Source: Desulfobulbus sp. (lineage in GTDB: Bacteria > Desulfobacterota > Desulfobulbia > Desulfobulbales > Desulfobulbaceae). Taken from it: 26,312 nucleotides of DNA. The stretch's first letter is position 1. Every line of letters begins with the position of its first letter. Positions 2,627-10,807 of this stretch are shown here, in pieces. The translations under genes were made by a program, and so were the position numbers. Where the stretch lies: the NCBI GenBank assembly GCA_011051825.1, contig DRKH01000325.1, positions 1 to 26,312 of the forward strand, in the 5' to 3' direction. The notes under the pieces were generated by a model. It saw nothing but the letters and a program-made list of their open reading frames with translations. It had not been told where the DNA came from and searched no databases.

Positions 2627-3247
2627 ATGGATATTAATCACTTTATACAACAAATCATCATCCTGGCACCGCCGTTCCTGCTGGCCCTGACCTTTCACGA
2701 ACTGGCACATGGCTATGTGGCATGGAACCTGGGCGACCCAACGGCCAAGAATGCCGGACGCCTGACCATGAATCCACTCAAGCACCTGGATCCATTGGGG
2801 GTCATTGCCTTCATCATTATGAAAATCGGCTGGGCCAAGCCGGTGCCGATCAATCCCAACTATTTTAAAAATCCGCAAAAGGGTATGCTGCTGGTTGCCC
2901 TGGCCGGACCGGCGGCCAATGTCATACTGGCTGTTGCCAGTGCCATCCTGGTCAAAATTCTTTTAGCTGTGCCGATTATCCCCATGTTTGTCCTTAAACC
3001 CCTGGTCGGCATGCTGGTGGCAAGCGTCTGGATCAATATCATGCTGGCGGTCTTCAACTGTCTACCGATTCCCCCGCTGGACGGCTCCAAAGTCCTGATG
3101 GGGATTCTGCCTGCGCAGACGGCACGCAGTTATGCAAAGCTTGAGCCTTTTGGATTTATCCTGCTGCTGGTCCTCTTTTACACCGGCGTCATCTCCAAAG
3201 TCATTATGCCCGTTATCAACTTTGCCAACGGCCTGCTCCTGGGCTGA
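2627..3247 (+). CDS. Site-2 protease family (M50) membrane metalloprotease
   Basis: HELAH (HExxH), NCLPIPPLDG motif, several hydrophobic segments. Confidence 0.93.
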   Translation: MDINHFIQQIIILAPPFLLALTFHELAHGYVAWNLGDPTAKNAGRLTMNPLKHLDPLGVIAFIIMKIGWAKPVPINPNYFKNPQKGMLLVALAGPAANVILAVASAILVKILLAVPIIPMFVLKPLVGMLVASVWINIMLAVFNCLPIPPLDGSKVLMGILPAQTARSYAKLEPFGFILLLVLFYTGVISKVIMPVINFANGLLLG

Positions 3248-3281
3248 AAATACAAAATTTATCCACCACGATACCGGGAAG

Positions 3282-3453
3282 AATATCCCATCCACACTTT
3301 TCTTTTGAAACATCCTCCGACTCGTGGCCTTGAGATCGTTCGTATTGCAACACCGCCTGCATTGCCAGCTGTTTCACCCTGGCCCGGGCAACAGGATCAG
3401 CAGCCCATTGAGGAATATTTTTCCCGTTTCAGGTCAAGCAACCCCTGAGATAT
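3282..3453 (-). pseudogene. 3' remnant of an SNF2-type helicase with C-terminal DUF3883 (frameshifted, truncated)
   Basis: Minus strand translates as ISQGLLDLKREK, then after a frameshift NIPQWAADPVARARVKQLAMQAVLQYERSQGHESEDVSKEKCGWDI. This resembles the 'IPQGLL...ADPEARARVERLAMEAVM.YER..G....DVS.EKCGYDI' region I recall from helicase-DUF3883 proteins. No start codon; missed by the ORF track. Confidence 0.7.
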
Positions 3454-3521: not shown

Positions 3522-3791
3522 TCACTTTTTCGTCTTTTTTCGTCTGTGGCCGACAGCCAAGACCAAAATAACTATTTTTTCCTGTTGAACTTCACAGATC
3601 AGGCGATAATCACCGACACGATACTTCCACAGACCTGATAATGACCGGCGCAATGGATCGCCATACCTTTGCGGATCCTCAGCAGTTTCAATGCGTTTCT
3701 TGAGATATTTAAGAATGTCCCTTTGCGTTTGCTTTCCAAGCTTATCGAGTTGCCTCCTTGCTGTCTCAGAGAATTTAACCTGCCAGATCAA
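3522..3791 (-). CDS. RelE/ParE-family toxin (TTG start overlapping the antitoxin end)
   Basis: WQVKFSETARRQLDKL...LSGLWKYRVGDYRLICEVQQEKIVILVLAVGHR is typical of RelE/StbE. The C-terminus is atypical (see findings). Confidence 0.88.
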   Translation of the reverse strand: MIWQVKFSETARRQLDKLGKQTQRDILKYLKKRIETAEDPQRYGDPLRRSLSGLWKYRVGDYRLICEVQQEKIVILVLAVGHRRKKTKK

Positions 3792-4002
3792 GTTCTTTCT
3801 CCACTTCATCCAGAGTGTAAGTCTTTTCCTGGCCCTTGCGGATACGCTCAAGAGTTTTTTCGGCTAAATAGACTTCTTCCATTTCATCGAGTTGACCCAA
3901 GATTGCCTCTTTAATATAAAACGCTTTTGTCCTTCCTGTTGCGGCAGCAAGATCATTTAATCTTTGTTCTGCCTCTGCGGGTAATCGAACTGAAGTAGGC
4001 AT
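3775..4002 (-). CDS. RHH (CopG/RelB-like) antitoxin
   Basis: MPTSVRLPAEAEQRLNDLAAATGRTKAFYIKEAI ribbon-helix-helix pattern, acidic C-terminus ending TLDEVEKELDL, SD AGGAGG, directly upstream of the toxin. Confidence 0.88.
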   Translation of the reverse strand: MPTSVRLPAEAEQRLNDLAAATGRTKAFYIKEAILGQLDEMEEVYLAEKTLERIRKGQEKTYTLDEVEKELDLAG

Positions 4003-4025
4003 ATGAAGTTCCTCCTGACTAAATG

Positions 4026-4078
4026 TGTATTCATAGTATCGCTTGTATTTATTGTATTCACTCTAACGGGCGTGTCAA
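4026..4078 (-). promoter_or_regulatory. Sigma70-like promoter of the TA pair with putative RHH operator repeats
   Basis: Minus strand TTGACA (4078-4073), 16 nt, TACAAT (4056-4051). Three TGTATT direct repeats at 4026, 4044 and 4053 overlap the -10 and start region. Confidence 0.6.
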
Positions 4079-4079
4079 C

Positions 4080-4280
4080 TTATTCTTGTATATAATCAGG
4101 TTGGGGAGAGTTGGAGGTCAACTGCAAATTGGTTAAGGCACTTTCTTTAAATCGTCTGGCAAGATCCCTGTCCGGAACATCATGCCCGCCATGGCTTACT
4201 CGTTCTGCAACCCGCAAACGTGACATTTCCACATCTGGTAAGGCGAGATAGATCGCCACTGGCTCATATCCAAGCCCCAC
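4080..4280 (-). pseudogene. C-terminal fragment of a zeta-toxin-like/AAA_33 P-loop kinase
   Basis: GYEPVAIYLALPDVEMSRLRVAERVSHGGHDVP...RRF matches the lid region of zeta-like P-loop proteins. There is no Walker A and an in-frame stop lies immediately upstream. Confidence 0.75.
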
Positions 4281-4953
4281 TCACAAGAGTATTGGGTCGA
4301 ATTTGTGATTTCGACCAATGTTCGTTAACCGCCTGAATAAAAGCGGGACGAACTAATTTTGCGCGACTGACAAGCCGACCATCACGTTCATATCGAAGAT
4401 AAATCCCTTCGGCAGGCTCTGATGACAACTTGGAACATGCCAATAATTCTTCTAATTCAGGAAATGAAAAATGGCCGTTGGCAAGTAACGGGACAGCGGG
4501 GATACCTGCTTTTTTTAAGAGATTGTCCCTTTTCTTTACAGGCCAGAAGTTCCTCGTCTTCTTTTCGAGGACATCAAATCCTAAAAACCAGCTTGGAAGT
4601 TTGCTGTAAGAAACGGAATGCCTGGCATAGCACCATTCACCAAAAAGGATCAACCGATCCTCTAACGCATCAAAAAGAAGATCTGCTTTAACATGCAGCC
4701 AATCGGGCAGTTTTTTCCATTGACCAGTAAACGGTTTGTCGAGGTAACCGCCTCGGTTTTGTAGAAGAAGATTGCCCCCTTTATCAAAGGAAATCCCAAG
4801 ATTTGCCCCATCAATTTTTTCTTCAACAATGAGTTTGTGACGTAAAAATTCTTTCCGTTGTTCTTCATCCAAGACCTTATCTCCCCTGATAGACACTCCG
4901 GGAAGAACTGCCAAGTGAGGTGTAGACGGAAATTTAATAAAATTACGCACCAT
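4264..4953 (-). CDS. ATP-dependent RNA ligase family protein (adenylyltransferase domain only)
   Basis: N-terminal KFPSTPHL; motif I EEKIDGAN; QNRGG; III FGEW; IIIa FLGFDV; IV EGIYLR; V RAKLV. Confidence 0.9.
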   Translation of the reverse strand: MVRNFIKFPSTPHLAVLPGVSIRGDKVLDEEQRKEFLRHKLIVEEKIDGANLGISFDKGGNLLLQNRGGYLDKPFTGQWKKLPDWLHVKADLLFDALEDRLILFGEWCYARHSVSYSKLPSWFLGFDVLEKKTRNFWPVKKRDNLLKKAGIPAVPLLANGHFSFPELEELLACSKLSSEPAEGIYLRYERDGRLVSRAKLVRPAFIQAVNEHWSKSQIRPNTLVSGAWI

Positions 4954-5488
4954 CTTGAACCATCTTCTCCTGATATTTCTTTTTAACGTAATCCGGACAA
5001 AGGAAAATCACAGCAATCCCAACATCGTTTAAGGCATCTTTCCACCCCCACCACTTACTGTCAGTTGCCTGAAGAATAGGCGGTTTTTCAGGGTGGGCAT
5101 TAGCTACAGCGACAAATTTTCGATCAGAGATATCAAACTCTTGTAAATCATCGTGGTTAGGGAATTCTTCGTAGGAATCGTCTCTTTTGGTAATACTCAC
5201 TCGATCTTCATCCAACAAATAATATTGGTAATCATGAACCCATTTCATGAAGTGATCACCAATTCCAGGTTGACCACTCATGGAAAGTTGTTTCCGATAT
5301 TCATCGAAAATATCATTTTCATCATCTAAAATAAGCTTTCCACGGCCCGATGTCACATGCTCTACTGCCTTAATACATGCGTCAACACAATCCACAAGCT
5401 CATCAACAATATTCATTGGATCTTTGGCAAGATTGGCGACGACCGGAACGTTGGTATCAACAATACATTTTGAAGGCAGACTATTCAT
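4943..5488 (-). CDS. PIN-fold putative ribonuclease
   Basis: Acidic tetrad in PIN-like order: IVDTNV, FDEY, DISDRKFVAVA, ILQATDSK. 181 aa; overlaps both neighbours. Confidence 0.7.
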   Translation of the reverse strand: MNSLPSKCIVDTNVPVVANLAKDPMNIVDELVDCVDACIKAVEHVTSGRGKLILDDENDIFDEYRKQLSMSGQPGIGDHFMKWVHDYQYYLLDEDRVSITKRDDSYEEFPNHDDLQEFDISDRKFVAVANAHPEKPPILQATDSKWWGWKDALNDVGIAVIFLCPDYVKKKYQEKMVQDGA

Positions 5489-6905
5489 TGTTGACCGTAT
5501 CCACTTTATTTTTAATCATTGCCTTTCTTTTGAGCATAGCCGCTTTTGCCTGGGCTGTAATATCCCCCATCTCGTCACCGAAAAAATTTTCCGGCCAATT
5601 AGTGATATTACCAAAAAGATCAATCTGCAGTGGTTCTAATTTTGCTGGGGTTTTTGAGGCCATCGCAAAATAAGCAGATACATCTTTCCGAGATATTTCT
5701 TTAGGTTTTTTATTTTCTGCAATACGTCGTTGTAGTCTGCGGAGAAAATGTTCTGAATGGGTTTCGATGATAAGCTGAATATTTCTGTCTTTTCCATTTT
5801 CCCGAGAATTTATGACATCAATAAAAACATCAGCCAAAGCGGCCTGGGCACTGGGGTGCAGGTGTATCTCAGGTTGTTCAATGATGATAATAGAACCCTG
5901 CGGAGCATAAAAGCACTGTACCAGTACAGGTAAAACCTGTGAGATGCCAAAGCCGACATCAGGCAAGTCAACAAAATCATGTGATCCTGTTGTGCACACT
6001 TTAACCTCATATTCCTGGCGGGTTTCAGAAATTGGATTGACTTTAAATTTTTCAATCAATCCCATTTCCTTCAATTTTTCGGCGATGAGTTGCATAAATG
6101 GTTTTGCCTGACGTTTATAGCCCAAGCTGATTTTTCTCTCTTGAGCCGCCAGCATTGCAGCAACAGCATTTTCTCCGCCATAACCCACATCTTCGGGAAT
6201 AATTCCAGCCCAGGAATAAAGGCGTTCTGTTTTGGTTCGCAAAGGGCCAAGATAAAAAACTGACTGAAAAAGTTTTTCCTGTTCAAGGTTTAAGGTTTGG
6301 ACAAAATCTGCATTTTTGTAATAAGCAACTACTTCATCAGGAAATCCATAAAAACGAACCGTTGTTGAGGGATACCATACCCGGCCTGGGTTACGTTTAA
6401 GTTGATAGTCTTCGGCTATCACCTCATATTCAATCTTGGAACTTTCGCGACGATTCATACCAATAGATAACGAAATATTATTTCCTTTTAAGAGCGAATA
6501 GTTAAAGCTGTCCAGCACAACAGTATGGTGGTCTTCGCCTGTCATTCCAACGGTGGCGCTAAAGGACAATTGTTTCCCTTGGTATTGACTTCCCGACAAC
6601 GGATCCTTGAATTTAATATTTTTCCTTAAATCCCAAGTATATTCAAAGCTAATTTTGTTATCTTTGTTTCTGTGATAGACCATTTCCAGATAGGATCCTA
6701 ACTGGACAGCTGTATTTTTCCCGCCAGGATAAAATATCGCTTTTCGGTCTTGAGAATCGACTGTTTGCCGAAGCATCATCAACAATTGACCGATACTCGA
6801 TTTTCCGGAGCTATTGGTTCCAAAAAAGAGAGTAATCGGTGCCATTTTAATAGGATCCGTATCCTGCCAGTTTTTAAAATTTTTAATCCGCAGTTCTCTT
6901 AACAT
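5481..6905 (-). CDS. ABC-type ATPase, AAA_21/AbiEii-like with C-terminal DUF3696
   Basis: Walker A GTNSSGKS, signature GFGISQ, Walker B/D-loop IIIIEQPEIHLHP, H-loop IETHSEH, C-terminal IDLFGNITNWPENFF. Confidence 0.92.
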   Translation of the reverse strand: MLRELRIKNFKNWQDTDPIKMAPITLFFGTNSSGKSSIGQLLMMLRQTVDSQDRKAIFYPGGKNTAVQLGSYLEMVYHRNKDNKISFEYTWDLRKNIKFKDPLSGSQYQGKQLSFSATVGMTGEDHHTVVLDSFNYSLLKGNNISLSIGMNRRESSKIEYEVIAEDYQLKRNPGRVWYPSTTVRFYGFPDEVVAYYKNADFVQTLNLEQEKLFQSVFYLGPLRTKTERLYSWAGIIPEDVGYGGENAVAAMLAAQERKISLGYKRQAKPFMQLIAEKLKEMGLIEKFKVNPISETRQEYEVKVCTTGSHDFVDLPDVGFGISQVLPVLVQCFYAPQGSIIIIEQPEIHLHPSAQAALADVFIDVINSRENGKDRNIQLIIETHSEHFLRRLQRRIAENKKPKEISRKDVSAYFAMASKTPAKLEPLQIDLFGNITNWPENFFGDEMGDITAQAKAAMLKRKAMIKNKVDTVNNE

Positions 6906-7327: not shown

Positions 7328-9934
7328 CTATGCCTGTCCTTTACGTGTCATCCGAAGGGCATGGCGATAAATATCCGGGATTCTATAGCGGGATACACCG
7401 TCATCATGTTCCTCATACACAGATAAAATACCCACCTCAAGAGCTAATGGAATAAGATCTGATTGTCTTTCCAGATCACTAGCTGCAACCGGAGTGCGGC
7501 CAATTCTTTTAAGATTGTCGAGTAATGGTTCCAGCTCTTTAAACTCTTCTTTTAAGGCGCCAAGAGCCTGTAAGGACACTTCAGATAAACATTCGATTAA
7601 TGCTCGGGGACGAATAAGAGCTCTGGTATATGGCGAGCGCGCATGTGCATTTTTCTCCCAGGGAACAGCCTCATGAAACAGTTGCAGAAGATAGCGCGGA
7701 GTGTGATCTTTATTTCCGTCAGCCAATCGGGTCCATACCCAATTACGGGTAAAGGTTGTCTTGCCCCCCTTCATCCGTTCACCAACCAGGATATTCCAAA
7801 CAAAAAATACGTCATTTTCCGTCCAGGTATCCACTGGCCTGTCAGGGCTGGGGGCTCCAGAAAAGTCTTTTAGGAATTGCTTAAGTTCTTTACACAACAA
7901 TGCCTGTTTCAGTGCAACCTTCAGATATGTGGCTTTGTCAGACCATTTAAGAACCACCGAGCGGCCATAAAGATGACTTTTATTTTCAAAGTGTAATCCT
8001 TTCCAGATATCTTCACGTAACAAAATCTTAAAATGCAGATTTTGTAATGCCTGCCCCTGATCCATCAAGAGATCAAATAGACCTTCTATAGCATGTGTTC
8101 GGCGTACTCTATCTTCCGACGCACTGTTAAATCCTGTATCTAATCCATCAAAAAGCAAAAAAGTATCGGCGGTTGTGGAGTTGTCCAAATGCCTTAGCCA
8201 ATCGTTCAGCTCCAGTGGAGCACGGGAAGTTTTTGCAGTTTTCTCAAAAGCTGAGATGATATCCAGCTCAGATTCAAATGAGCATGTTTTTAAATATTCC
8301 GGCGTATAATCAGCCACATCCAGAGAACGAACGGTGGCTATATTGACATACAGTATCCAAAAATGACGCCATGACAATTCACTCTCTCGAATTACTTTTT
8401 CAATTTCTCTAAATCCGTCAGCCGTAATGATCCAGCTTCTTTGTTTCTTAAGTGGGGCAGGTGCATGAACAATTACAGAATCACCCCGTTCTGTGCTTTC
8501 CGATATTCGCCGAAAGATAGCAGTCTTCCCAGATCCTTTTCGGCCAAGTACCAGTGGAATATTTGTCGAAACAGCATCTTTGACGACTGTTGTTTCTACA
8601 AAACTCTCTATAAAATAACCTTGAGCTTCTGCTGTCCCTGTTGCAAAAGAAAGATTTTGTAAAATATTATCCTTTTCATTTTCCAGTGATCTTGCCTGTT
8701 GCTCTTCATTTTCAGATGGTAAAAACCGTTCAATCCAGTTTGCGACTGGTTCAAAATTTTTCCAGATAGTCGAATCCTGTAAAATATAATTTGAAGAGGC
8801 GATTTCGTCACGATATCGAACAAAATGAGTTAGTTCCCTTTCATCAAGAATCTCGCTATCCTCTCTATCTTCATTAACGCCGGACAACCAATCAGAGATC
8901 CACTCAAAAGACTTTACTTCATATTTTTTTTGTAACTCAGGGACGTTCGGCAGTGGAGATACCAGGAAACGCGGTTCCGGAGCCAAAGCCTGTCCGGATA
9001 TTTTCCTGCCAGTTCGGGAAGTCAGCAATCCTTGAGTCAAGAGTTCAGTTCCTAAACGGGCCTGGGGATGAGGAAAGAATGTAACAATAGCGATATCAGC
9101 TAAATCAAAAAGAAGCGGCCCGTTTATATCTGTTATTCCCGTACGGGCATCAAGCAGGATAACATCCGGTTTGAAAGGTAATTTTTCTTTTATTCCGGTC
9201 AAAAACAGTTTCAGGGGGTTACGTTCTTCCCTGTACCAGGCATCCGGCATTATAAAACGCAGCTTGCGTGCATAGTCCGCAGTTGTCCGCCCGGCAGGAA
9301 TTAAATAAATATTATCTGATTCAGGGACAGGAATTAAATGAGATGCAAAATCAGGTTCCTCTCCCTGATCTAATTCAACCAACAGGGACACAACTCCCTG
9401 AGACGAAGTAACCTCATCTTCGCATTTAAATAATGCCGCAAGACCTGGTGCTTCCAAATCCATATCAACACAGACTACTTTACGACGGTTTGCAGAAAGA
9501 AGATGGGCTGTATAGGCAAGAGCTGTTGACCTCCCGACACCGCCACGTAAAGAATAAAATGTTGCCACAATGGGTGGATCAAGATCTTCATCAAGATCTG
9601 ACGGAAAGACTGTTTTTTCCGTACTTCCAAGAGTCCCTCGAGCCAATGCTTCAGGCCATAAGGGAAGGCTCTCAACCTCAATATCACCCGGCAGGGTTCC
9701 AATCCACTCTCTTTCTTCAGGGGTAACTAATTCAACCCACTCAAGCTCTTCATTCTTTATCCCTGCGAGTACAACCTGAATCCGTTCCTTTTGAGAAATA
9801 CCTTCAAACCCTTTCGCAATAACGGCAACTTGCCACCCGCCGTAAGGATCTTTTTGGATAATAATTTTTTCAGGTGCAATATCCGCTTTTTCCAGATTGT
9901 TTTTCAGTTGTTGTTGTATTTCATCTCTTTTCAT
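7328..9934 (-). CDS. Multi-domain NTPase (868 aa): small N-terminal alpha/beta domain + ParA/MinD-like ATPase + STAND-like P-loop ATPase
   Basis: The ATG overlaps the HEPN stop (ATGA). First NTPase: FYSLRGGVGRST, VDMDLEAPG, LLDARTG. Second NTPase: LGRKGSGKT, LLFDGLD, LLREDIW. C-terminal YRIPDIYR. Confidence 0.85.
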   Translation of the reverse strand: MKRDEIQQQLKNNLEKADIAPEKIIIQKDPYGGWQVAVIAKGFEGISQKERIQVVLAGIKNEELEWVELVTPEEREWIGTLPGDIEVESLPLWPEALARGTLGSTEKTVFPSDLDEDLDPPIVATFYSLRGGVGRSTALAYTAHLLSANRRKVVCVDMDLEAPGLAALFKCEDEVTSSQGVVSLLVELDQGEEPDFASHLIPVPESDNIYLIPAGRTTADYARKLRFIMPDAWYREERNPLKLFLTGIKEKLPFKPDVILLDARTGITDINGPLLFDLADIAIVTFFPHPQARLGTELLTQGLLTSRTGRKISGQALAPEPRFLVSPLPNVPELQKKYEVKSFEWISDWLSGVNEDREDSEILDERELTHFVRYRDEIASSNYILQDSTIWKNFEPVANWIERFLPSENEEQQARSLENEKDNILQNLSFATGTAEAQGYFIESFVETTVVKDAVSTNIPLVLGRKGSGKTAIFRRISESTERGDSVIVHAPAPLKKQRSWIITADGFREIEKVIRESELSWRHFWILYVNIATVRSLDVADYTPEYLKTCSFESELDIISAFEKTAKTSRAPLELNDWLRHLDNSTTADTFLLFDGLDTGFNSASEDRVRRTHAIEGLFDLLMDQGQALQNLHFKILLREDIWKGLHFENKSHLYGRSVVLKWSDKATYLKVALKQALLCKELKQFLKDFSGAPSPDRPVDTWTENDVFFVWNILVGERMKGGKTTFTRNWVWTRLADGNKDHTPRYLLQLFHEAVPWEKNAHARSPYTRALIRPRALIECLSEVSLQALGALKEEFKELEPLLDNLKRIGRTPVAASDLERQSDLIPLALEVGILSVYEEHDDGVSRYRIPDIYRHALRMTRKGQA

Positions 9935-10344
9935 CTGGGTCTCCTCTGGCGGCGAATTTGACTTGAAATCCATCCTGTAAGTTGCTTTGCAGCTTTTACA
10001 AGTTCGTCTGCAGGGTGAGTAAGTTCTTGATTGGTGTTTTGATATCGCAAGGCTGTATCCCAGTTATTGATAAAAAAAGCTTTTTCACCTGATTTATCTT
10101 TTAAATCAGCGCTCCTAAAACCTGCTGATCGCCATAATCCCTGCAGGTTATGTCCATCTTTTCCTCTGGTTGAAAAGGGACTGTTTGTCCTGCGTAAATA
10201 TGATTTCAGCATACATTCAACAGCATAACCTGCCATATAGACTGGCCCTATTGATTCACTACGACGTGGAAGCATGGCATCAGCATCGGCAGCCCGTTCC
10301 ATAGCTGTATCACGCCAATCGTGATATGTTTGTGGATCATTCAT
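9931..10344 (-). CDS. HEPN-domain protein (137 aa), putative RNase
   Basis: VYMAGYAVECMLK helix, Rx4H motif RGKDGH followed by NLQGL, and W...LRY. The ATG overlaps the upstream stump's stop (TAATG). Confidence 0.8.
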   Translation of the reverse strand: MNDPQTYHDWRDTAMERAADADAMLPRRSESIGPVYMAGYAVECMLKSYLRRTNSPFSTRGKDGHNLQGLWRSAGFRSADLKDKSGEKAFFINNWDTALRYQNTNQELTHPADELVKAAKQLTGWISSQIRRQRRPR

Positions 10345-10514
10345 TAAGCATCCCCCATTCGTGTTACTGTCTGGTCGTACCACATGGGCAGTTTTGGGTC
10401 TTCTTCGAGGATTTTGGGTAGTATTTTTTCGGCAATGGTGATGATGGTTTTGTAGTCTCTGCTCTGCCAGGCGTTTTTGAAATATTTCAATGCTTGCGCA
10501 GTTTGATTTCCTTG
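10344..10514 (-). pseudogene. 3' stump of a large DNA methyltransferase gene
   Basis: Translates as ...YFKNAWQSRDYKTIITIAEKILPKILEEDPKLPMWYDQTVTRMGDA*. This resembles the C-terminal 'GFKKAWQERDY.TII.VA.KIP..ILQEDPKLLMWYDQA.TR' tail I recall from large N6/N4 methylases. No start codon; missed by the ORF track. Confidence 0.7.
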
Positions 10515-10776: not shown

Positions 10777-10807
10777 AAAAAAAGGGAACAGAAGATCTCT
10801 GTTCCCC
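10777..10807 (-). terminator. Rho-independent terminator of the FadL-family gene
   Basis: Minus strand GGGGAACAGA-GATCT-TCTGTTCCC followed by a T run. Confidence 0.8.

Follow-up and report, generated by a model that had tools for sequence, protein, structure and literature searches.

The 26,312-nucleotide contig DRKH01000325.1 of Desulfobulbus sp. (assembly GCA_011051825.1, positions 1 to 26,312 of the forward strand), hereafter the window, carries on its reverse strand two overlapping genes, one encoding a small HEPN protein and the other an 868-residue ATPase. The window is the whole contig (26.3 kb) of a metagenome-assembled genome (MAG) that is 83% complete, and the pair is present on it in a single copy. 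A housekeeping gene of the contig has its nearest named counterparts in the Desulfobulbales genera Desulfolithobacter, Desulfobulbus and Desulfogranum, at 67-69%. Judged from its domains and gene order, the pair is a fused-form member of HINPO (HEPN, inactive NTase, ParA, ORC/CDC6), equivalent to the PADLOC system PDC-M28 with its B and C genes joined. The two genes and their junction are as follows.

9931 to 10344, minus strand: HEPN gene, 137 amino acids, of the HEPN-T/PF05168 type
7328 to 9934, minus strand: ATPase gene, 868 amino acids, with a small N-terminal domain, a ParA-like NTPase with an arginine P-loop, and an ORC/Cdc6-like AAA+ domain with a winged helix
9931 to 9934, minus strand: ATGA stop/start overlap of the two genes, giving translational coupling

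Direct reading of the sequence places the start of the HEPN open reading frame (ORF) at the ATG at 10344, preceded by the Shine-Dalgarno sequence GGGGGA, and shows a GGAG 7 nucleotides 5′ of the ATG of the 868-residue ORF. An 881-residue version of the ATPase, starting at the ATG at 9973, was considered unlikely because the homologues all align from its M14, and it was dropped in favour of the ATG at 9934. The original prediction for this locus had described a small HEPN gene ATGA-coupled to a protein of 868 residues with two different P-loops. Both features are indeed read directly in the sequence, the first P-loop being RGGVGRS (residues 130-136) and the second GRKGSGKT (residues 464-471).

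The identity of the pair is supported because all three PDC-M28 models were matched, together with two NCBIfam families above their cut-offs. The PADLOC models followed each other in the expected order: model A on the HEPN (3.7e-5), model B on residues 123-283 of the ATPase (1e-28), and model C on residues 454-822 (5.9e-13). The NCBIfam family of KGGVGR-motif variant AAA ATPases (NF047398) covered residues 122-302 with 152.5 bits (cut-off 90), and the Sll1717-family P-loop ATPase (NF047389) covered residues 433-823 with 120 bits (cut-off 75). The pair had first been put forward as a candidate new system. Because the PDC-M28 models and the HINPO architecture are both matched, it belongs instead to a system that already carries these two names. 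PDC-M28 was nominated by 'guilt by embedding', from its position within BREX, DISARM and type I restriction-modification loci (Payne et al. 2024, bioRxiv 10.1101/2024.01.29.577857), and HINPO was named by Li, Burroughs and Aravind on 22 Oct 2026 (bioRxiv 10.64898/2026.10.19.760177). We consider it probable that this fused-form HINPO/PDC-M28 member is an anti-phage or anti-mobile-element module, as predicted, in which the HEPN would be activated by the ParA-like switch.

Domains of the 868-residue ATPase

The central part of the ATPase contains the first of the two P-loops.

8690 to 9571, minus strand: ParA/MinD-like NTPase domain, KGGVGR variant, the 'ConB2' clade of the HINPO preprint
9527 to 9547, minus strand: deviant Walker A RGGVGRS, with R130 (near-invariant) and R135 (invariant) replacing both lysines

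The middle domain had been read as a ParA-like NTPase with arginine at both lysine positions, and this assignment stood: the canonical KGGxxK[ST] with its two lysines is absent from the RGGVGRS of the window. The substitution is a property of the family, since arginine occupies the P-loop lysine position in 314 of 315 family proteins (211 of the R..R form and 101 of the K..R form). The segment SLRGGVGRST is invariant across 20 full-length homologues, and so are D157 and D159 of switch I, the motif E161-A-P-G164, and the Walker B aspartate D262. Weak matches of the ATPase were also obtained with Pfam models (ParA, CbiA, AAA_31, ORC-CDC6-like) and with MinD models. The profile of the ParA-like domain matches 11,010 representative clusters.

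The N-terminal domain and the linker that follows it occupy these positions.

9695 to 9934, minus strand: N-terminal domain, residues 1-80, BolA-like in our analysis and an inactive Pol-beta nucleotidyltransferase according to the HINPO preprint
9638 to 9670, minus strand: linker motif LPLWPEALAR, with P91 and W93 invariant; low predicted local distance difference test (pLDDT) score in the model

The pattern GGWQVAVIAKGFEGISQKER...VELVTPEE, which had been quoted from the first 80 residues or so of the protein, is present there. It had been taken to resemble both BolA and a minimal nucleotidyltransferase without the GS/DxD catalytic residues. The double resemblance is borne out, with BolA as the best match and a minimal nucleotidyltransferase as the second, and the domain has neither the ligand residues of the one nor the catalytic residues of the other. 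Searched against the PDB, a profile built from 72 orthologous N-termini found BolA chains and nothing else (12 of 12 matches, best E 1e-3); 15 of the 72 members reached Pfam BolA, weakly, and several homologues are annotated 'BolA-like/IbaG' by the Joint Genome Institute. The AlphaFold2 model of residues 1-80 (pLDDT around 90) shows the order helix-strand-strand-helix-strand-helix, which is that of BolA. In the Foldseek search of this domain the nine best matches were BolA proteins. Among the structural matches, nucleotidyltransferases stood about 2 Z units below the best, which were BolA.

The BolA fold and the signature around its second strand and second helix are present in the N-terminal domain, and its ligand residues are replaced. 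The RHR of BolA corresponds to E-R-I in the window (consensus E-R-R), where the first arginine is kept as the invariant R51 and the histidine is lost, and the later H-A position reads E-W. The histidines of BolA proteins ligate an iron-sulphur cluster together with glutaredoxin. On the nucleotidyltransferase side, no conserved GS...DxD was found in the folded domain. On balance we favour a BolA-like over a nucleotidyltransferase-like domain, and differ in this from the preprint, whose authors assigned it on structural grounds to an inactive Pol-beta nucleotidyltransferase (iNTase; bioRxiv 10.64898/2026.10.19.760177). After the LPLWPEALAR motif of the linker comes a conserved acidic stretch, SDLDEDL (9580-9600, minus strand), also modelled with low confidence.

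The C-terminal part carries the second P-loop.

7331 to 8638, minus strand: C-terminal NTPase region
8522 to 8545, minus strand: AAA+ Walker A GRKGSGKT, with G464, R465, K466, G467, G469, K470 and T471 invariant in 20 homologues
8138 to 8158, minus strand: Walker B LLFDGLD, with D596 and D599 invariant and FDGLD unchanged in 20 homologues
7364 to 7483, minus strand: C-terminal helix and beta-hairpin, residues 818-857, read as a winged helix from the secondary structure of the model

The Walker B motif presumably resembles the NACHT-type hhhhDGhD motif. The sequence profile of the AAA+ domain matched the PDB at the P-loop level only (E 0.028), and a fold search was therefore needed. The closest folds were SSO1545, PAB2304 and Cdc6/Orc1, not NLRs, and the structural alignments to Cdc6/Orc1 and SSO1545 extend to the ends of both chains. 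The domain, which had been called STAND-like, is thus an AAA+ of the ORC/Cdc6-STAND clade with a winged helix. A sensor of the Avs STAND type, which had also been evoked, does not fit: the model ends in the winged helix, without TPR, LRR or WD40 repeats, and the effector is encoded by a separate gene.

The HEPN protein and its modelled docking

Pfam HEPN was matched by 45 of 50 orthologues of the small protein (best E 2.3e-9), the copy of the window reaching 18.3 bits for a cut-off of 22. The top PDB profile match was 1wol, a HEPN protein (E 0.015). The protein is probably the 'PA-HEPN1' of the HINPO paper. Three codons are considered below.

10150 to 10152, minus strand: H65 codon; His in 49 of 51 orthologues, the remaining two having a His two residues off
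10045 to 10047, minus strand: R100 codon, part of the invariant R100-Y101; read as the Arg of a degenerate Rx4-6H whose His is lost
10165 to 10167, minus strand: R60 codon, the Arg of the previously proposed 'Rx4H'; R in 10, S in 19 and H in 7 of 51 orthologues

The HEPN had been credited with an intact Rx4H. The motif is literally there, as R60-G-K-D-G-H65, and is a coincidence of this copy; it was rejected as the catalytic motif of the family because just 10 of the 51 orthologues have R60. More generally, an arginine stands at Rx4-6H distance from H65 in 15 of 51, and R100 is not followed by a conserved histidine at 4-6 residues. The residues that are invariant are Y36, E43, R100 and Y101 (R and Y in 51 of 51), followed by the near-invariant K47, A14, R17, A21 and A119. 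In AF0298-type HEPN-T proteins and AbiV, likewise, the motif arginine is kept and its histidine lost, and an alternative active site may be provided by a second conserved histidine, located between helices 2 and 3, and an acidic residue of helix 2 (Anantharaman et al. 2013, PMC3710099). The conserved H65 and R100, together with E43, fit such a site on sequence grounds. RNase activity of this HEPN is plausible but not assured.

The absence of the canonical Rx4-6H could also mean that the HEPN is an inert sensor or adaptor that binds RNA or nucleotides, the ParA-like protein being the effector, which would form multimers on the nucleic acid of the invader and prevent replication or packaging. 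The fold match of the C-terminal domain to ORC/Cdc6-type AAA+ proteins would suit such an effector, as these proteins and winged helices bind DNA. Moreover, the authors of the HINPO paper make the case for ParA multimers as the primary effector of ParA systems in general, and they describe an archaeal ParA system whose HEPNs lack catalytic residues (bioRxiv 10.64898/2026.10.19.760177). We hold an inert HEPN to be distinctly unlikely: Y36, E43, R100 and Y101 are invariant across phyla and H65 nearly so, which together make up the proposed alternative active-site set, and TIR, an enzymatic effector, fills the same slot in the sister branch described below.

The contact between the two proteins was modelled with residues 1-420 of the ATPase and the HEPN, both given as alignments. 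The interface score ipSAE (interaction prediction score from aligned errors) was 0.76 (0.74, 0.76 and 0.78 in the individual runs), as compared with 0.00 for the best control. In the calibration, 58 of 80 solved complexes attained this mark, as did 2 of 110 mismatched pairs. The runs shared at least 87% of their contacts, and the pLDDT of the partners was at least 85. On the HEPN side the interface involves helix 1 (residues 12-22), residues 75-88 and the last helix (119-134). On the ATPase side it is made of E73-T80 in the last helix of the small domain, where W77 is central to the contact, and of two ParA segments, 177-194 and 220-236. The model supports docking of the HEPN on the N-terminal half of the ATPase. 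H65, R100, E43 and Y36 all lie outside the modelled interface, and so do the LPLWPEALAR motif and the SDLDEDL stretch.

According to the original prediction, the small domain would dock on the HEPN and silence it. The first half of this proposal agrees with the model, in which docking takes place on the last helix of the small domain. The second half does not, as H65, R100 and E43 remain uncovered and lineages devoid of the N-terminal domain keep the HEPN.

Distribution, genomic context and predicted role

More than 1367 full-length homologues (about 870 residues, about 50% identity) were found in Cyanobacteria, Desulfobacterota, Gammaproteobacteria, Myxococcota, Actinomycetota, Chloroflexota and other phyla. 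The distribution is patchy, with about 95 matches among 185,579 species genomes in a pattern scan, and the carriers include the filamentous or multicellular Moorena, Symploca, Streptomyces, Frankia, Sorangium and Electrothrix. Among 80 species genomes with the large protein, 74 have a HEPN of the same family directly upstream on the same strand; the pairing of the HEPN with a three-part partner, as first described for the window, is thus strongly conserved. The 4-nucleotide overlap of the two genes recurs in about 54 of 80 related loci. Of the six loci without an upstream HEPN, three are cut by a contig end, two are genuinely devoid of it, and one, in a cyanobacterial MAG (locus L009, 130-1188), has a transposase gene in the usual place of the HEPN, directly upstream of the ATPase gene. 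No conserved third gene was detected, 108 of 145 adjacent ORFs being singletons.

The architecture itself varies. Split forms exist in which BolA-ParA is a gene of its own (about 420 residues), and minimal pairs of HEPN and BolA-ParA occur with no AAA+ gene nearby. Forms that lack the small N-terminal domain keep the upstream HEPN. The constant core is the HEPN with the arginine P-loop ParA domain, because the N-terminal domain or the AAA+ is absent from some lineages. At one split locus (L082) a BolA-ParA gene was found with neither a HEPN nor an AAA+ detected nearby. At locus L084 (1-7254) a minimal HEPN and BolA-ParA pair adjoins a type III CRISPR-Cas system (Cmr2, Cmr3, Csx3, NE0113).

A sister branch with lysine at the first Walker A position (K-type) carries fusions to TPR, TIR, FGE-like and tandem ParA modules, and STAND modules are among its C-terminal partners. 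In 76 of 79 metagenome loci of this branch a gene abuts the ATPase start from upstream, and in 68 of these 76 it encodes a TIR protein (loci L092-L171). Two more examples of TIR with a KGGVGR-ATPase came from assemblies (L089, 4329-4997; L090, 3356-3994), and one K-type ATPase of the TIR loci also has a TIR at its C-terminus. Read from gene order, the occupation of one slot by HEPN or TIR is the signature of a putative effector-swapping immune switch.

In the window, the pair lies inside a low-GC island (42% guanine plus cytosine, as against 54-55% in the flanks) with a relic of a defence gene at each edge.

10347 to 10514, minus strand: relic of a PglX-type methyltransferase, its last 45 residues or so, whose stop overlaps the HEPN start (PADLOC PglX 4.5e-16, profile 874-918 of 919)
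3219 to 3428, minus strand: relic of an HmaA helicase at the other island edge (PADLOC HmaA 2.6e-13, profile 1035-1079 of 1176)

Because the HmaA and PglX relics bracket it, the whole island looks like cargo left within an Hma defence locus that has eroded. Immediately downstream of the pair, 4264-6905 (minus strand) encodes a HEC-03B ABC-type ATPase (2.2e-124), HEC-03A (1e-32) and a small RNA ligase (Pfam RNA_ligase, 2.9e-33). Farther on, the stretches 3522-4062 and 4083-4280 (both minus strand) contain a ParE toxin (Pfam 3.4e-17) with a ribbon-helix-helix antitoxin-like ORF upstream of it, and a short fragment with ...GGHDVP... that resembles a stump of a zeta-toxin-type kinase and gave no PADLOC match. 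An inverted repeat pair of 26 nucleotides (2152-2177 and 2296-2321, 85% complementary, 118 nucleotides apart) lies just left of the island. At the right edge, a strong terminator-like hairpin (11 pairs and a T-run; 10783-10807, minus strand) is found 3′ of a FadL-like outer-membrane gene. The promoter scan revealed no sigma-70-like site between 10345 and 10780, 5′ of the HEPN, and no promoter-like site between the hairpin and the HEPN start. A search of sequencing runs listed no RNA run carrying the locus; DNA near-identical to 7328-10344 occurs, with shares of 0.33-0.88, in runs of at least four studies that bear the label hydrothermal vent metagenome and in one subsurface study, and the runs with the best shares may represent the source sample. 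In the 80 genomes, the defence-type neighbours of the pair were ABC ATPases, PD-T4-6, NsnB, mad3/6, HEC-03B and three integrases, a tally that yields no rate.

The vicinity of ParDE and other toxin-antitoxin-like genes raises the question of whether the pair is itself a toxin-antitoxin module stabilising the mobile island instead of sensing phage. The HEPN would be an RNase toxin and the ParA-like ATPase its antitoxin, acting through binding, phosphorylation or a conformational change that depends on nucleotide, as was predicted in 2013 for the dyad of a MAE_18760-family HEPN with ParA/Soj (Anantharaman et al., PMC3710099). The small gene placed first with a 4-nucleotide overlap is an order typical of such modules, the pair moves as a self-contained unit among variable neighbours, and the complex model backs tight binding. 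We nevertheless regard this as unlikely. A protein of 868 residues that combines two conserved NTPase engines with a winged helix goes far beyond what neutralisation needs, and the modelled contact leaves H65, R100 and E43 uncovered. The HEPNs of the 2013 dyad have a conserved Rx4-6H, unlike that of the window, and the sister branch, with its TIR and its sensor-type TPR and FGE-like fusions, follows the sensor-switch-effector pattern of immune systems.

A housekeeping or developmental function, in RNA processing or cell differentiation of filamentous and multicellular bacteria and with no role in conflict, was also considered. Many carriers are of this kind, the flanking genes in other genomes are mostly ordinary metabolic ones, and BolA proteins are stress and morphogenesis factors. 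Such a function seems very improbable in view of the patchy distribution, the varying neighbourhoods, the position of the window pair in a low-GC island with defence genes, the exchange of HEPN for TIR in the sister clade, and the loss of the BolA histidine ligands.

In the immune reading that we prefer, the AAA+/winged-helix part would sense invader DNA or another infection cue, and sensing would cause the ParA-like switch to dimerise or multimerise in an ATP-dependent way. According to the model, one HEPN would be docked through its first and last helices on the last helix of the small domain and on two ParA-specific loops, with its H65/R100 face free. The switch would then activate the bound HEPN, probably by uniting two copies, and the HEPN may cut RNA through the alternative H65/R100/E43 site, so that the infected cell stops growing. 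The predicted immune role draws on context, namely the defence island, the embedded position of the pair and the exchange of HEPN for TIR.

A more specific version, which we put forward tentatively and think rather unlikely as a whole, makes the N-terminal domain a BolA-derived adaptor, and not a Pol-beta nucleotidyltransferase, that, with the two ParA loops, would hold one HEPN per ATPase with H65/R100 exposed; an ATP-driven sandwich dimerisation of the ParA domain with its arginine P-loop, licensed by the ORC/Cdc6-like part as DNA sensor, would unite two HEPNs into a composite RNase site. If this were true, the HEPN would be the primary, dimerisation-gated effector and not a 'backup', and the same logic would apply to the TIR sister systems.

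Several observations weigh against the preferred reading. The conservation of the interface does not exceed that of the remainder in either protein (0.56 versus 0.60 and 0.48 versus 0.49). The HEPN of the window falls under the Pfam cut-off and its match to PDC-M28A is weak (3.7e-5), and its RNase activity is not assured because the canonical Rx4-6H is absent. Of 130 genes found next to the pair in other genomes, only a few belong to defence. A single three-part mechanism cannot hold family-wide, because the HEPN is kept in some lineages without the N-terminal domain or the AAA+. An arginine P-loop may bind ATP and yet hydrolyse it poorly, as Lys-to-Arg P-loop mutants do; therefore the 'switch' could work unlike ParA. 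PDC-M28 and HINPO are both computational predictions. Finally, the HINPO authors assign the primary action to ParA multimerisation and only a backup role to the HEPN (bioRxiv 10.64898/2026.10.19.760177).

The wider importance of the locus lies in a large family, spread across many phyla, that couples HEPN or TIR, both classic suicide effectors, to SIMIBI/ParA NTPases hardly studied in immunity. The locus itself is categorically nothing new; it is a compact and intact two-gene example suitable for cloning, and the residues to probe are H65, R100, R130, R135, K470, D596 and the W77 contact.

Comparison with known systems

A literature search on PDC-M28, Sll1717, KGGVGR or the combination of HEPN, BolA and ParA returned nothing useful. 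PDC-M28 is a three-gene cassette, A>>B>>C (Payne et al. 2024, bioRxiv 10.1101/2024.01.29.577857), and the window fuses B with C; the literal three-gene layout is not found because the two form one 868-residue ORF without a stop. The embedding by which PDC-M28 was nominated is mirrored by the window pair, which is embedded in an eroded Hma locus. PDC-M28 is a computational candidate without a proposed mechanism.

HINPO offers the closest architecture. As in the window, its HEPN gene is located upstream, a small N-terminal domain is fused to ParA, and the ParA belongs to the ConB2 clade, with arginine for the Walker A lysine and a PG motif after sensor-1. The ORC-CDC6/STAND AAA+ is a separate downstream gene or, 'in several cases', is fused as here, and the carriers are enriched in multicellular bacteria, to which many of the carriers found here belong too. 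In the authors' proposal, invader DNA is sensed by the ORC-CDC6 part and ParA multimerises, with the HEPN serving as a backup effector (bioRxiv 10.64898/2026.10.19.760177). The two accounts part at the N-terminal domain, which is placed in the Pol-beta nucleotidyltransferase superfamily there and matches only BolA in the sequence profiles here. The alternative H65/R100 site and the docking interface are absent from the description in the HINPO paper. Our analysis, computational like the preprint, adds the coincidental Rx4H and the H65/R100 site, the disagreement between BolA and nucleotidyltransferase, the docking surface, the lineages without accessory domains, and the count of the TIR swap.

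Three other comparisons are more distant. The MAE_18760 HEPN and ParA/Soj dyad resembles the window in pairing a small HEPN gene with that of a SIMIBI NTPase, the ATPase being proposed to control the HEPN. It differs in that the MAE_18760 HEPNs keep the Rx4-6H, whereas the HEPN of the window is of the PF05168/AF0298 type with the alternative histidine, and the 2013 description includes neither the N-terminal domain nor the AAA+ module. From the type VII HEPN-MNT (HepT-MntA) systems the window is set apart by a HEPN family other than DUF86 and by the partner. AMPylation of the HEPN would not be expected, because the partner lacks GSx(n)DxD and is not a nucleotidyltransferase-family enzyme. Compared with Avs and NLR-like STAND proteins, the window has no C-terminal repeat sensor, its effector is separate, and a second, ParA-like NTPase is interposed.

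The TIR-ParA dyads of the HINPO preprint, or TIR with a KGGVGR-ATPase in our loci, share with the window the arginine P-loop ParA-like family and an effector gene that abuts the ATPase start. They differ in the effector, a TIR with an NADase-type fold, in the lysine at the first Walker A position (KGGVGR), and in a C-terminal TPR, TIR, FGE-like or STAND module that replaces the Sll1717-type AAA+ of the window.

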